A stretch of DNA of 64,000 nucleotides from a virus (Duplodnaviria; Caudoviricetes): positions 64,001 to 128,000 of IMG/VR virus record IMGVR_UViG_3300033555_000001. The stretch is one strand, 5' to 3'. This document shows positions 21,396 to 26,725 of this stretch, one piece after another. The translations under genes and the position numbers were made by a program. How positions within the stretch are numbered: position 1 is the first letter of the stretch; each line of letters begins with the position of its first letter. The notes beneath the pieces are model-generated. The model was not told the origin of the DNA. It ran no database searches and was given only the letters and a program-made list of their open reading frames with translations.

Positions 21396-22535
21396 ATGAG
21401 CCAGTTCCCGGTTATTCGCACGCTGAGCGATATCAGCCCTGCTATCGAAAGCAATCATCAAATCAGAGTAAAAGTTGACGACAGCACCGGACATACTGTT
21501 GTTTGCTATATGGTGCAGGACGAGGATACTTTCTCCGGTGATTCGCCTGAGATAGAGCGGGAGTGCCGCGGTATTACTTTTGACAGCGCTGGTAATATTG
21601 CTGCCCGCACCATGCACAAGTTTTTTAATGTTGGCGAGCGGCCAGAGACCATGCCTGATCAGATTGACTGGTCAAAAGTTGATCGAATCATGGAAAAGCG
21701 TGATGGTTCCATGGTGACTCCAGTGCTGACACCACTCGGCCCGTCGCGGTTTAAGTTTAAAACTAAAAAGACTTTTACTTCTCCAGAATCAATTTGCGCG
21801 GACCAGCAGGCAGTATATCAAATTAGATATGACTGGATCGTTGACATGTTGGAGAAAGGATTGACTCCAACCTTTGAAATGACTTCGCCCCGATTTCCAA
21901 TTGTGGTAATGTACAGCGCAGACGAGCTCACACTGCTGCACATCAGAGAAATGGTATCTGGTCGGTATTTGACTGCGGAAGAAATAGTTTTTACGCACCC
22001 GCCGTTTCCAGTTGTAGAAAATATGGTTGCCCAGTTCTGCAGCGAGAGCACACCAAGTCAAGTACAGTGGGAAAAGCTCCGAGTGTTTGCCGAGACTGCC
22101 ACAGGCATGGAAGGCGTTGTTATTCAGTTTCACGGCGGTGAGATGATGAAACTCAAGACTGCTTGGTACATTAGCTTGCACCACTCGGTTGTGTTTACAC
22201 GCTGGAGAGATGTGGCTCGTACTGTGTGCGCTGATCAGGCTGACGATCTCAAAGCTGCATTTACAATGGTGGGGCGTTCAATTGAACCGATCTTGAAAGT
22301 TGAGCGTCGGATTATGAGCGAGATCTCAAATACACAAAACTCTGTAGAAGAACAGGTTAAAATCGGTCGAGCTCTTGATTGGTCGATCAAAGATATGGCA
22401 CTAGCGTTAAGAGATCATCCGCTATTTCCACTGATCATCCGAGAATTTAAGGGTCAAGAGGTAGACTACATGGAACACTATGTTAAAAACTATCTTGATG
22501 ACGGCTGGAGTTTGGAAGTAATTCCTGCTGTTTAA
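21396..22535 (+). CDS. rnlA: RNA ligase 1 (T4 Rnl1/RnlA family)
   Basis: RECRGITF, HKFFNVGE, motif I EKRDGSM, EGVV, KLKTAWY. Confidence 0.92.
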   Translation: MSQFPVIRTLSDISPAIESNHQIRVKVDDSTGHTVVCYMVQDEDTFSGDSPEIERECRGITFDSAGNIAARTMHKFFNVGERPETMPDQIDWSKVDRIMEKRDGSMVTPVLTPLGPSRFKFKTKKTFTSPESICADQQAVYQIRYDWIVDMLEKGLTPTFEMTSPRFPIVVMYSADELTLLHIREMVSGRYLTAEEIVFTHPPFPVVENMVAQFCSESTPSQVQWEKLRVFAETATGMEGVVIQFHGGEMMKLKTAWYISLHHSVVFTRWRDVARTVCADQADDLKAAFTMVGRSIEPILKVERRIMSEISNTQNSVEEQVKIGRALDWSIKDMALALRDHPLFPLIIREFKGQEVDYMEHYVKNYLDDGWSLEVIPAV

Positions 22536-23915: not shown

Positions 23916-24134
23916 ATGTATTCGACAAAAGTGGCGTTTGTATTTGTTGTCAATAACAGCAACAGCAAAATTGTCGTGCACGCGCACGATGAAGAAACTG
24001 CGTTTGAGCTAGCGCAGGAACAAGTTGGTGCGGACGGTGGATTTCGTTATAGCCATTGCGTAAGTGGGCCTGGCAACGATGAAAAGTTCGCTGCACAAAC
24101 TGCTCAATTGGAGAACAGCAATGAAACACGGTAA
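23916..24134 (+). CDS. Hypothetical protein
   Basis: GGAG RBS. Confidence 0.75.
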   Translation: MYSTKVAFVFVVNNSNSKIVVHAHDEETAFELAQEQVGADGGFRYSHCVSGPGNDEKFAAQTAQLENSNETR

Positions 24135-24237
24135 ATTTCTGGCTGCGCTCGCACTAATCAGCGCGCTGTGGATTGGGCTGTACTTTCTCGGAATTAACGT
24201 GGTTTCAACAGTTTTTAAGACTTTGTTAGGATCGTAA
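24121..24237 (+). CDS. Small single-TM peptide (38 aa)
   Basis: MKHGKFLAALALISALWIGLYFLGINVV...; GGAG RBS; ends at the terminator. Confidence 0.65.
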   Translation: MKHGKFLAALALISALWIGLYFLGINVVSTVFKTLLGS

Positions 24238-24239
24238 AG

Positions 24240-24274
24240 TTAAGAGGGGTCAGCAGATCCCTCTTAATTCTTTT
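24240..24274 (+). terminator. Intrinsic terminator (possibly bidirectional)
   Basis: TTAAGAGGG/CCCTCTTAA stem then TTCTTTT. Confidence 0.8.
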
Positions 24275-24395
24275 ACTAAGCGCTCTACAGATTAAAAATT
24301 CGGTGTGAGCCAGGCAGTTCAGATGACTCTACGTGTAGAACTGTTCAACACACGCTGTCTCTAGAGACCGTTTAGTCAAAGTTATACTGGAATGA

Positions 24396-24424
24396 AATTA
24401 AGGGAGCCATTGGCTCCCTTAATT
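24396..24424 (-). terminator. Terminator hairpin downstream of phoH
   Basis: AATTAAGGGAGCCA-T-TGGCTCCCTTAATT near-perfect palindrome. Confidence 0.8.
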
Positions 24425-24443
24425 ATTTTAGTGCTCTAAGAGA

Positions 24444-25229
24444 TTAAGCCGTGCGAGTACCACTGCTAAACGAATGGCGTGTCCTGCTTACTTGACCGCC
24501 TTTAGTTTGCTGCTCGTCTGGACCGTCCAAATGAGTTAACAACTCACGAACCAGTGCTGAACGCTGAATATCGCTGTGGCCAAACTCAATCACATTGATA
24601 TTTTTCGACCGACCGCGCAAGCGTCGAGTTAACCACTCCAAACCGTTTTCCGGCAATCCTCGCAAATCACTCTGGGTTACGTCGCCGTTGACCACAAACG
24701 TTGAATACTCACCGGCTCGGGTGACAAACAGTTTGATCTGTTCGATGGTGGTATTCTGAGCTTCATCAAGAATTACATACGCATTGTTAAACGTGCGACC
24801 GCGCATATAGGCAAGAGGTGCAAATTCAATTTTACCAGTCTCAAGTAACTTTTTAGCCATGGTAACACCAACAAGCTCCTCAAGTGCGTCAAGCAGCGGA
24901 CGCAGATATGGGCTAATCTTTTCCTCAAACGTGCCAGGTAAGAAACCAAGATTTTCACCGGCTTCGCATACTGGGCGAGTCAGAACAATTTTTGAGACGT
25001 CGTTTGCTAGAAGTTTCTCGACGCCTACGGCCATTGCGAGAAAAGATTTACCTGAGCCAGCCGGCCCGGTACCTATGGTAAGTGCGGATCCACGAAGAGA
25101 TTCAAGATAGAACTCCTGTGAAATTGACTTTGCTTGAAGTTGCGTTTTAAGGCGTATTACTTTTGTACCCTCTTGGTTAATTGGCTGCGGATATTTTTGC
25201 TTGGTGGTTGTGGCGAGCTTACGACCCAT
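24444..25229 (-). CDS. phoH: PhoH-like ATPase
   Basis: GTGPAGSGKS, LTRP, LGFLPG, PLAYMRGRTF, ILDEAQN, NGDVTQSD; AGGAGG RBS. Confidence 0.97.
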   Translation of the reverse strand: MGRKLATTTKQKYPQPINQEGTKVIRLKTQLQAKSISQEFYLESLRGSALTIGTGPAGSGKSFLAMAVGVEKLLANDVSKIVLTRPVCEAGENLGFLPGTFEEKISPYLRPLLDALEELVGVTMAKKLLETGKIEFAPLAYMRGRTFNNAYVILDEAQNTTIEQIKLFVTRAGEYSTFVVNGDVTQSDLRGLPENGLEWLTRRLRGRSKNINVIEFGHSDIQRSALVRELLTHLDGPDEQQTKGGQVSRTRHSFSSGTRTA

Positions 25230-25431
25230 ACTATCCTCCTAAGGACTGGGTTCACAAACGGCGTCTTCCTAGAGATCTTTCTCCAGGTGACGAACGGGTT
25301 CAACCAGAGGGGCGTCAGGAAAAAGCTGCGACCACAGAATACGGTCGCTCAAAGTTAGGAGTAAGCCCATGATTGTCTCGAGGACAGCCGCGACGTGATG
25401 CGAGGCTGGGGAGTTTGGTTTTAACAAGATA

Positions 25432-25821
25432 TTAGTCTTGCTTTTGCAGGACAAAATTAATCCACTCTACTACTCCAACCGACCGGTTGTGTAGCAAGCT
25501 TTCACCAGCAACAATACAATCCAGCAAATAACTTGCCAGTCGTACGTGGTCACCGTCGCTGAGCGCCTTTAGCGCGTCTTTGACAGCCGTGGTGGTGGAC
25601 TCATCGCCATAATTAACAGGATTTTCAAAATGTAGGTCTACACTCTTCAAACCATTCTTGAAGAACCCAGCCACGCGGGCCAGGATAAATAGCTGATACG
25701 GATTAGTGATTTTACCAGCGGTAACTATTTCCTGCAGCGTCAAGTCAATTAATTGAGTTGAATGGCCAGGAACACCGTAAATAAATTCGTTTTCGTTAAT
25801 GATTGTTTGATGTAGGTTCAT
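25432..25821 (-). CDS. Hypothetical late protein
   Basis: Probable start MNLHQTIINE at 25821, downstream of TAAATA 25847-25852 (minus strand). Confidence 0.7.
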   Translation of the reverse strand: MNLHQTIINENEFIYGVPGHSTQLIDLTLQEIVTAGKITNPYQLFILARVAGFFKNGLKSVDLHFENPVNYGDESTTTAVKDALKALSDGDHVRLASYLLDCIVAGESLLHNRSVGVVEWINFVLQKQD

Positions 25822-25846
25822 AATAGGCTCTGTGTTCTTGATTATA

Positions 25847-25852
25847 TATTTA
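25847..25852 (-). promoter_or_regulatory. Late promoter box TAAATA
   Basis: gcTAAATA context, as at 8186 and 9182. Confidence 0.6.
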
Positions 25853-25902
25853 GCCACTCTTGCCGGTTCGTGTTACTACTGTATGTCTTTAGGAGAAACA
25901 AA

Positions 25903-26121
25903 ATGTCTGAATCTTGGGTTGACACACCACAGGTTGAAATACCAGCACCACATACGTGGGACACGCTGTCCCTTAATAATTTAATTGATGTAAAAAATCA
26001 GTTATTGAACAAACAAAGTATGGCAAGAGGCGCACCAGCCTACGTTAGTGCTATTAACGATTCACTGGCGCAATTAGAGCAGATTATTTCAGAAAAATCT
26101 AGCGATTCGCGCGGCGCTTAG
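25903..26121 (+). CDS. Hypothetical protein
   Basis: AGGAG RBS, MSESWVD start. Confidence 0.75.
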   Translation: MSESWVDTPQVEIPAPHTWDTLSLNNLIDVKNQLLNKQSMARGAPAYVSAINDSLAQLEQIISEKSSDSRGA

Positions 26122-26725
26122 CGGCAGATTTTGTAACTGCGGGTCCGTCGATATACTCTACCACGCGATCTACAAGGCCATATTTCAAACACTCGGCTGG
26201 GGTTAGATACCGGTCGCTTGGAGAAAATAACACGTCCATGATTTGCTTTTTAGACATTGTAGAGTGCTTTAAAAAGTGCTTTACAAATCTTTCCTCGAGC
26301 TGTGCGTACGCAGCGTGTACTGCAATAAGCTCGTGTTGCTTGCCGGAAAAATAACCACTGAACTGGTGCGCCATTACCTCGGCGTTTTTAGTAAGAGTTC
26401 TGAGACCCCTAGTGCCACCGGAAACAAGCAGCACTCCCATTGACGCCACAGTGCCAATACCTACCGTGCTAATCGGCAGTCTAGAAGTTTCCATGAGATC
26501 GATAATTGAAAAGCCCTCGCCAGTTTCACCGCCCACAGTGTTGATCAATATGGTCAGCGGGTCACTTGAGTTACGGGACAGATTGGATTTTAAGATGAAC
26601 TCACAGGCCGCATAAGAAGTATCTATATCAATCTCTCCAAAGAGCATGTGGCACCCAAGGGACTCTAAACTGTGCATATCGTACGGCAATTGGTCATCTA
26701 TCATTGAATCTGCTGTTTTACGCAT
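26099..26725 (-). CDS. clpP: ClpP-like serine protease subunit
   Basis: LFGEID, INTVGG, VASMG (Ser), MAHQ (His), SDRYLTP-E-LKYGLVD (Asp). Confidence 0.92.
   Translation of the reverse strand: MRKTADSMIDDQLPYDMHSLESLGCHMLFGEIDIDTSYAACEFILKSNLSRNSSDPLTILINTVGGETGEGFSIIDLMETSRLPISTVGIGTVASMGVLLVSGGTRGLRTLTKNAEVMAHQFSGYFSGKQHELIAVHAAYAQLEERFVKHFLKHSTMSKKQIMDVLFSPSDRYLTPAECLKYGLVDRVVEYIDGPAVTKSAAKRRANR

Follow-up and report, generated by a model that had tools for sequence, protein, structure and literature searches.

The locus lies in a 64,000-nt window that corresponds to bases 64001-128000 of a 310.7-kb (310,728 nt) IMG/VR virus genome; all coordinates of the element described below refer to the minus strand of this window. 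phoH occupies 24444-25229 (minus strand) and encodes a 261-aa protein that matches Pfam PF02562 (E = 1e-71), phrog_170 and the NCBIfam PhoH model. The start of the protein, MGRK, is kept in all relatives, and the Shine-Dalgarno (SD) sequence in front of it is conserved too. That the phage is related to T4 is consistent with a homologue of the gp63 family of T4 (phrog_562) encoded at 21396-22535. Upstream of phoH on the same strand is a gene of an unnamed family, here called X' (25432-25821, minus strand, 129 aa; stop codon at 25432-25434). Judging from an alignment with 25 homologues, X' probably starts at the ATG at 25821 (MNLHQ...) and not at the GTG at 25857 given in the ORF list. No match to X' was found in Pfam, PHROGs, NCBIfam or the protein Atlas, and its Atlas model is poor (pLDDT 0.42). 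X' is the constant upstream neighbour of phoH in all 26 related phages except one (L001); this constant pairing suggests that protein X works together with PhoH, and X' may be a functional partner of PhoH.

A TATAAT-like hexamer is present immediately upstream of X'. Between X' and a ClpP-like gene (26099-26725, minus strand), a small plus-strand ORF (25870-26121) with its own SD (AGGAGAAACAAAATG) and a start at about 25903 diverges from X', indicating that X'-phoH is served by a separate divergent promoter region, at about 25822-25902. At the other end, a strong and perfect 13-bp palindromic hairpin (AATTAAGGGAGCC-ATT-GGCTCCCTTAATT, 24396-24424) lies 20 nt past the phoH stop codon and looks like a two-way terminator that closes the X'-phoH operon against convergent plus-strand genes. 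ARAGORN found no tRNA or tmRNA gene in 24000-26500. Because X' lies upstream on the same strand, the 202-nt stretch between the two genes is an intercistronic spacer of an X'-phoH operon and not a 5' leader. A sequence-only reading of the window had described this stretch as a structured leader of phoH; the structure directly before the phoH start is genuine and conserved, but the term leader does not hold.

To collect relatives, we located 17 viral and 62 metagenomic loci with back-translated PhoH peptides, and a motif scan of IMG/VR added two more. They yielded 17 distinct spacer sequences of 166-205 nt with a common layout, always directly before phoH and all from uncultured jumbo phages. 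The element persists across phages whose PhoH proteins are 65-84% identical to that of the window, and in L001 the same element stands behind a different upstream region. In a sister group (L006-L010 and L037-L044), only 39-51 nt separate X, the homologue of X', from phoH. The motif scan of IMG/VR returned 15 stretches in all, comprising seven true members, all at phoH, and eight chance matches in GC-rich coding DNA. A second scan, in which the anti-SD and the loop were left free, gave three more chance matches and no new variant, so it added no covariation for the CCUAC:GUAGG contact described below. A spacer profile (nhmmer) found a single copy in the phage's own 310-kb genome, and a repeated element was rejected on this ground.

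The sequence-only reading had recognized no known riboswitch in the spacer, and database searches bear this out. The one match to Rfam 15 in window 24900-25800 is a chance hit to snoU30 on the opposite strand, scoring 16.8 bits where the threshold is 45 (E = 5); eleven homologous loci gave nothing at E <= 1. A blastn search of cultured phage genomes returned matches to phoH coding sequence only and no homologue of the spacer, and papers naming phoH together with riboswitches contained no description of such an element.

Single-sequence folding of the window was not better than that of shuffled sequences (z = -1.23), so the case for a structure rests on comparison with relatives. By this comparison, the spacer shows a conserved, uncatalogued predicted fold of four helices followed by a hairpin over the SD and AUG of phoH, and the helices are kept with differing sequences in the 17 distinct homologous spacers. 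P1, P3 and P4 are hairpins, and P2 is a long-range helix that encloses P3. From 5' to 3', the layout begins with the P1 hairpin between CUC and GAG, the 5' strand of P2 (NNNNCA-A-GGGC), a joint with UCCUAC, and the P3 hairpin. It continues with a pyrimidine-rich joint starting with AGCA, the 3' strand of P2 (GCCC-CKC-UGNNNN) and the P4 hairpin, and it ends with the local hairpin that covers the SD and AUG, ACCCA-GUCCU-[GUAGG]-AGGAU-NNNN-UGGGU.

In the window, P1 (25385-25408) reads CAGCC.CG-CAUCACGU-CG.GGCUG and can be closed by the flanking CUC (25411-25413) and GAG (25377-25379). The strands of P2 are CAAUCA-U-GGGC at 25365-25375 and GCCC-CUC-UGGUUG at 25301-25313, the latter carrying the family motif GCCCCKCUG. 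P3 (25328-25348) reads GCGACCGU-AUUCU-GUGGUCGC and is followed by the pyrimidine-rich joint J3/2, AGCUUUUUCC, at 25318-25327. P4 (25262-25292) has the base CGUC...GACG with CCUGGAGA/UCUCUAGG inside, and a conserved GGAG in its 5' strand. Several stems picked out earlier from the letters recur here: the CAGC/GCTG hairpin is P1 (CAGCC...GGCTG), the 9-bp stem GCGACCGT/GTGGTCGC followed by AGCTTTTTCC is P3 with its downstream joint, and the GAGA/TCTC stem is part of CCTGGAGA...TCTCTAGG within P4. The TGACG/CGTCA stem can be drawn, but it is not the conserved pairing: GACGCCCC contains the 3' strand of P2, and CGTC pairs with GACG at 25262-25265 to form the base of P4. P2 and the local hairpin over the SD and AUG (25224-25251) were absent from that first description.

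Across the 17 sequences, 91.2% of the cells of P2 are paired against 78.9% in shuffles, and its covariation score is 0.367 against 0.174; none of 500 shuffles reached the observed covariation, and slid controls scored 0.155 or less. Without guidance, RNAalifold recovered P2 as well as the outer pairs of the start hairpin, and nested folding of each whole spacer found P2 independently in 13/17. When P1, P2, P3 and the SD/AUG hairpin were taken together in the 10 closer sequences, 91.3% of cells were paired compared with 77.0% in shuffles, 16 of the 28 pairs had changed on both sides, and again 0/500 shuffles reached the covariation. Both-side changes were seen in 7/8 pairs of P1 among the 10 close relatives and in 5/6 aligned pairs of P3, and P1 is predicted in both the long- and the short-spacer groups. 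As MAFFT could not register P3 and P4 across all members, and P4 is not in register, these two helices, and P1 in the distant members, were judged by per-sequence folding and not by column counts: a hairpin is found at the position of P3 in 17/17 and at that of P4 in 17/17, in both cases built from unrelated sequences, with a mean z of -2.6 for P4. G-U pairs favour the sense strand of phoH, on which 155/170 cells pair compared with 143/170 on the complement, indicating that the feature is one of RNA and not of DNA.

Three of the distant members (L012, L014 and L050) have an extra short helix that flanks P3 inside P2 (CUUAG/CUAAG, CUAAG/CUUAG, CUAG/CUAG); this helix covaries among the three, and the closer group lacks it. 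The 5' strand of P4 (25280-25287) carries a conserved GGAG or GGAGG (CTGGAG, CAGGAGG, GTGGAGG, ATGGAGG and others) that falls in differing reading frames and is paired with CUCC of the 3' strand. This motif could serve as a decoy SD or as another pairing partner for the anti-SD; in a relative of T4, a GGAG site of the RegB type is a further possibility. A role of the element as an RNase III site was set aside, because the helices are interrupted by joints of 13-17 nt.

The initiation region of phoH itself is predicted to be closed by the local hairpin at 25224-25251, ACCCA-GUCCU-[UAGG]-AGGAU-AGUA-UGGGU in the window, which pairs the 3' half of the SD and the AUG. This hairpin is predicted in 26/26 long- and short-spacer relatives; its inner helix covaries (GUCCU:AGGAU, UUCCU:AGGAA, GUUCU:AGAAC, AUCC:GGAU), and the last two bases of the SD core (AG of GGAG) are paired with a probability of 0.9 or more in 14/17. 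With compensatory helices in the fold and both the SD and the start codon paired, the element classes as a putative start-masking cis-RNA. The SD region itself (25234-25242, UUAGGAGGA) is unusually strong for the window phage. AGGAGG occurs 21 times on both strands of the 310-kb genome and GTAGGAGG does not occur at all; this rarity makes the phoH SD (UAGGAGGA) exceptional for the phage, and an SD of such strength may need masking.

A second sequence with the capacity to close the SD lies in the joint between P2 and P3. The sequence-only reading had pointed out an anti-SD upstream of phoH, CTCCTAA at 25355-25361, and it is indeed exactly complementary to TTAGGAG at 25236-25242 (duplex energy -7.6 kcal/mol). 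In the family this CUCCUAA takes the form UCCUAC, complementary to the loop and the 5' half of the SD. The core CCUAC is invariant in 16/17, the exception being the window with CCUAA. It sits 3, 4, 5 or 6 nt after GGGC and so falls in all three reading frames; its conservation therefore cannot be at the level of a peptide. Throughout the long-spacer group, the window aside, the loop of the start hairpin is GUAGG, the exact complement of CCUAC. GUAGG is found only where CCUAC occurs, and the short-spacer group lacks both. In the window, CCUAA is accompanied by a one-base deletion in the SD loop (UAGG), and its 7-bp duplex of -7.6 kcal/mol equals the -7.7 of the family. We infer that CCUAC and the 5-nt GUAGG loop pair with each other, in a pseudoknot or a kissing contact, on the basis of their co-occurrence in one clade and the single compensating event in the window, in a type of structure (a pseudoknot) that RNAfold cannot score. 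With this contact, the entire stretch GUAGGAGGA...AUG would be base-paired, although a 5-nt loop with all five bases paired is sterically tight. Only 6/9 members of the short-spacer group have an anti-SD (CCUCC).

The spacer also contains an open reading frame. In the window it runs from a UUG at 25425-25427, 7 nt past the X' stop, to a UAG at 25269-25271 inside P4 (25269-25427, minus strand). The corresponding frame (..SP..VLE.IKG..AQQ..APL..) is free of stops over the first ~150 nt in 10/10 close relatives, against 35 stops in the other two frames, and such openness has a probability of about 1.5e-5 over seven lineages when the variable bases are shuffled. The start of the ORF overlaps or abuts the X' stop in 9/9 (TAATG, TGATG, GTGA, TTGA, or 7 nt downstream), and its stop lies in or just past P4, 30-43 nt before the phoH AUG. 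Of the seven relatives that stand further off, three keep the frame open and four (L012, L014, L050 and L047) have it interrupted shortly past CCUAC; in L001 it is shifted. In one relative (L002, 2790-3012), the spacer ORF lacks a stop codon and is continuous with the phoH frame, which could yield an N-terminally extended PhoH with about 67 extra residues. A programmed frameshift from X' into the spacer ORF was rejected because the relative frame varies, being +1 in the window and L002 and -1 in others.

The spacer turned out to have a counterpart in coding sequence. When the spacers, without their SD, were run as an nhmmer profile, the short-spacer phages gave hits in the final ~150 nt of X, with E values of 4e-7 to 2e-3 at seven loci and of 0.02 at an eighth. 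The two sequences run colinearly: the 5' strand of P2 is matched by GAG...AUCAAGAGC, the base of P3 by AAGGUG and CACAGCAC, and the 3' strand of P2 by GCUCCKCUGAUUGG. In an alignment of 26 homologues, the X proteins of the long- and short-spacer groups are homologous over their full length. Together with the match between spacer and X, this indicates that the long-spacer phages carry an intact X' followed by a remnant of the 3' end of X. These alignments show that the spacer descends from the 3' coding end of X.

The fold is also predicted inside X itself in 9/9 short-spacer phages, where P1 is closed by CUC...GAG, P2 is present, P3 is long with a base of GUGAA:UUCAC, and P4 spans the X stop codon. 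Eight X genes have 43 codons for invariant amino acids, only 11 of which use a single codon throughout, and nine of these 11 are the codons of P2 and of the base of P3. Synonymous sites are frozen in 9/10 codons of the helix motifs compared with 2/33 elsewhere (Fisher P = 9e-7, for codon classes picked after the homology had been seen). L001 (2563-3000) has the RNA element without X', with a ClpP-like gene and about 300 nt of other sequence upstream. In L039 (1214-1500), X is degenerate and shortened, its frame runs over the phoH start, and P3 is shortened as in the long-spacer group; this locus looks like an evolutionary intermediate. The RNA thus persists without the gene, whether X' is absent, as in L001, or degenerate, as in L039.

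The reading we favour, and consider moderately probable, is that the fold masks the phoH start and couples PhoH synthesis to translation of the upstream gene. The spacer would be a cis-acting fold on the X'-phoH messenger that keeps the ribosome-binding site of phoH shut, with P2 and P3 forming a scaffold that presents the invariant CCUAC to the GUAGG loop, and ribosomes passing through the mask would open it. In the ancestral, short-spacer state, the fold would lie within the last ~65 codons of X, and every ribosome finishing X would melt it. In the group of the window, a partial duplication would have left an intact X' followed by the old 3' end of X, freed from coding. This remnant would no longer be selected as a protein and would stay translatable from the X' stop, so that re-initiation at that stop would let ribosomes still run through P1-P4. 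The net effect would be to restrict PhoH synthesis to messages with ribosomes translating X'. Several observations bound this reading. The frame is broken in four of the seven distant relatives, so ribosome passage through the whole fold cannot be universal. In the window, the spacer ORF starts with a weak UUG without an SD, and the gap of 30-43 nt between the ORF stop and the phoH AUG exceeds that of classical termination-reinitiation coupling.

The strongest competitor, which we nevertheless hold to be unlikely, is a riboswitch that senses a ligand, or an operator to which a protein, for instance PhoH or X', binds; P1-P4 would bind the effector and set the availability of CCUAC. A multi-helix fold with conserved joints beside an SD-sequestering platform is what such a sensor might look like, a new class is possible given that no known RNA family matches, and the four distant relatives with a broken frame need another opener. 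A weak relation of PhoH to the RNA helicase PhoH2 in NCBIfam, far below the cut-off of the model, points in the same direction. On the other hand, few invariant unpaired bases are left beyond the anti-SD, P2 and the coding-derived motifs, and the fold also lies inside a translated frame in the short-spacer phages, which would be unusual for an aptamer. These two results lower the odds of the sensing of phosphate, nucleotides or PhoH that the sequence-only reading had put forward. We would give slightly less credence still to the full form of this idea, a new sensor RNA that sets PhoH synthesis by a metabolite or by PhoH itself, with the CCUAC:GUAGG contact as the switch.

It is improbable that the element acts as an intrinsic terminator or attenuator between X' and phoH, or as an RNA thermometer that opens the SD on warming. 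The sequence-only reading had seen a terminator-like stem, and a consensus scan also calls P3 with its UUUUU a terminator in the window. However, AGC separates the U-run from the stem, the U-run is missing from most of the 16 relatives, and J3/2 gives P3 its terminator look in the window phage only. The stem and U-run are thus real in this one phage, while as a conserved intrinsic terminator the element was rejected; P3 is a structural hairpin whose U-run is not conserved. The hairpin over the SD and AUG, at -10 to -11 kcal/mol, is of the type that thermometers use, but a thermometer would have no need of P1-P4 or of the open frame. Release by an internal promoter of the T4 late type is not indicated either, as no TATAAATA was seen in the spacer of the window or in those spacers of the relatives that were read.

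We consider it highly improbable that a small protein accounts for the conservation. The sequence-only reading had named translation of an overlapping 61-aa ORF as a rival explanation of the conservation; this ORF is the spacer frame counted from an earlier TTG at 25454. The frame is indeed open in 10/10 close relatives and starts at the X' stop, but its peptide shows no selection and so does not account for the conservation. Substitutions between close pairs are flat over the three codon positions in the spacer (14/11/10, 19/14/18, 19/21/15 and 22/26/24), unlike those in the flanking genes, which have the third-position excess of coding sequence (4/3/48, 28/25/85, 21/9/94 and 26/18/119 in phoH; for example 8/6/23 in X'). 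Moreover, CCUAC and GGAG are conserved in differing frames, L001 has the frame shifted and L012, L014, L050 and L047 have it interrupted, and the product belongs to no Pfam or PHROG family. What selection keeps in this frame appears, from these substitution patterns, to be the passage of ribosomes and not the peptide. Finally, a decaying remnant of a duplicated X without present function would account for the significant homology, at the level of DNA, between the spacer and the 3' coding end of X, for peptide-like motifs such as VLE.IKG, which resembles AIESIKS, and for the lack of purifying selection on the peptide, but we find it the least credible reading of all, given compensatory changes in four helices, hairpins that persist despite complete sequence turnover, and an element retained although PhoH is only 65-84% identical to that of the window and still present when X' is missing (L001) or degenerate (L039).

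Few auxiliary genes are as common in phages as phoH, which serves widely as a marker gene, and we know of no account of its role and control during phage infection. A conserved, uncatalogued RNA element dedicated to phoH would be the first candidate regulator of a phage phoH; if the sensor reading were true, the element would be the first dedicated regulator of this kind and a direct handle on the signal to which PhoH responds. Under the favoured reading of start masking opened by ribosomes, the type of mechanism, coupling by unmasking, is known and the RNA family is uncatalogued; the transfer of a structure from coding to noncoding sequence adds to its interest. It offers an evolutionary case of unusual clarity, in which an RNA structure is embedded in a frame in one clade and has been freed by partial duplication in its sister clade; in the resulting spacer, selection to stay translatable can be told apart from selection on what is translated.

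Starts closed by RNA structure are familiar from other systems. In T4, long early transcripts hide the starts of e, soc, 49 and I-TevI in a hairpin, and shorter late transcripts leave them accessible. The phoH element shares with them a T4-related phage as host and a local hairpin over the SD and AUG, and it differs in that no TATAAATA late-promoter motif was seen inside the structure. SAM-II and preQ1-II are riboswitches in which a pseudoknot sequesters the SD. As in these, a distal loop or joint would pair with the SD, a contact that for phoH is deduced from sequence comparison; unlike them, the phoH fold has no Rfam match and no evident ligand pocket, and it tolerates a reading frame.

In the RNA phages MS2 and Q-beta, ribosomes translating the coat gene open long-range pairings that close a downstream start. 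Translational coupling by unmasking has been described for Q-beta RNA (PMC2978339). The likeness to phoH is that a downstream SD and AUG are predicted to be shut by structure that includes distant, upstream translated sequence, and that ribosome passage is the proposed opener. In phoH, by contrast, the masking sequence sits in a four-helix domain, this domain has in one clade been copied from the upstream gene into the spacer, and the spacer is kept translatable without constraint on its peptide. Control through a leader ORF has been reported for E. coli iraD (PMC5574718), and termination-reinitiation has been surveyed (PMC6728339). As in such coupling, the spacer ORF starts on or beside the X' stop, and being translated seems to be all that it is selected for. 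Unlike in those systems, it ends 30-43 nt before the phoH AUG without overlap, and it crosses a conserved multi-helix fold.
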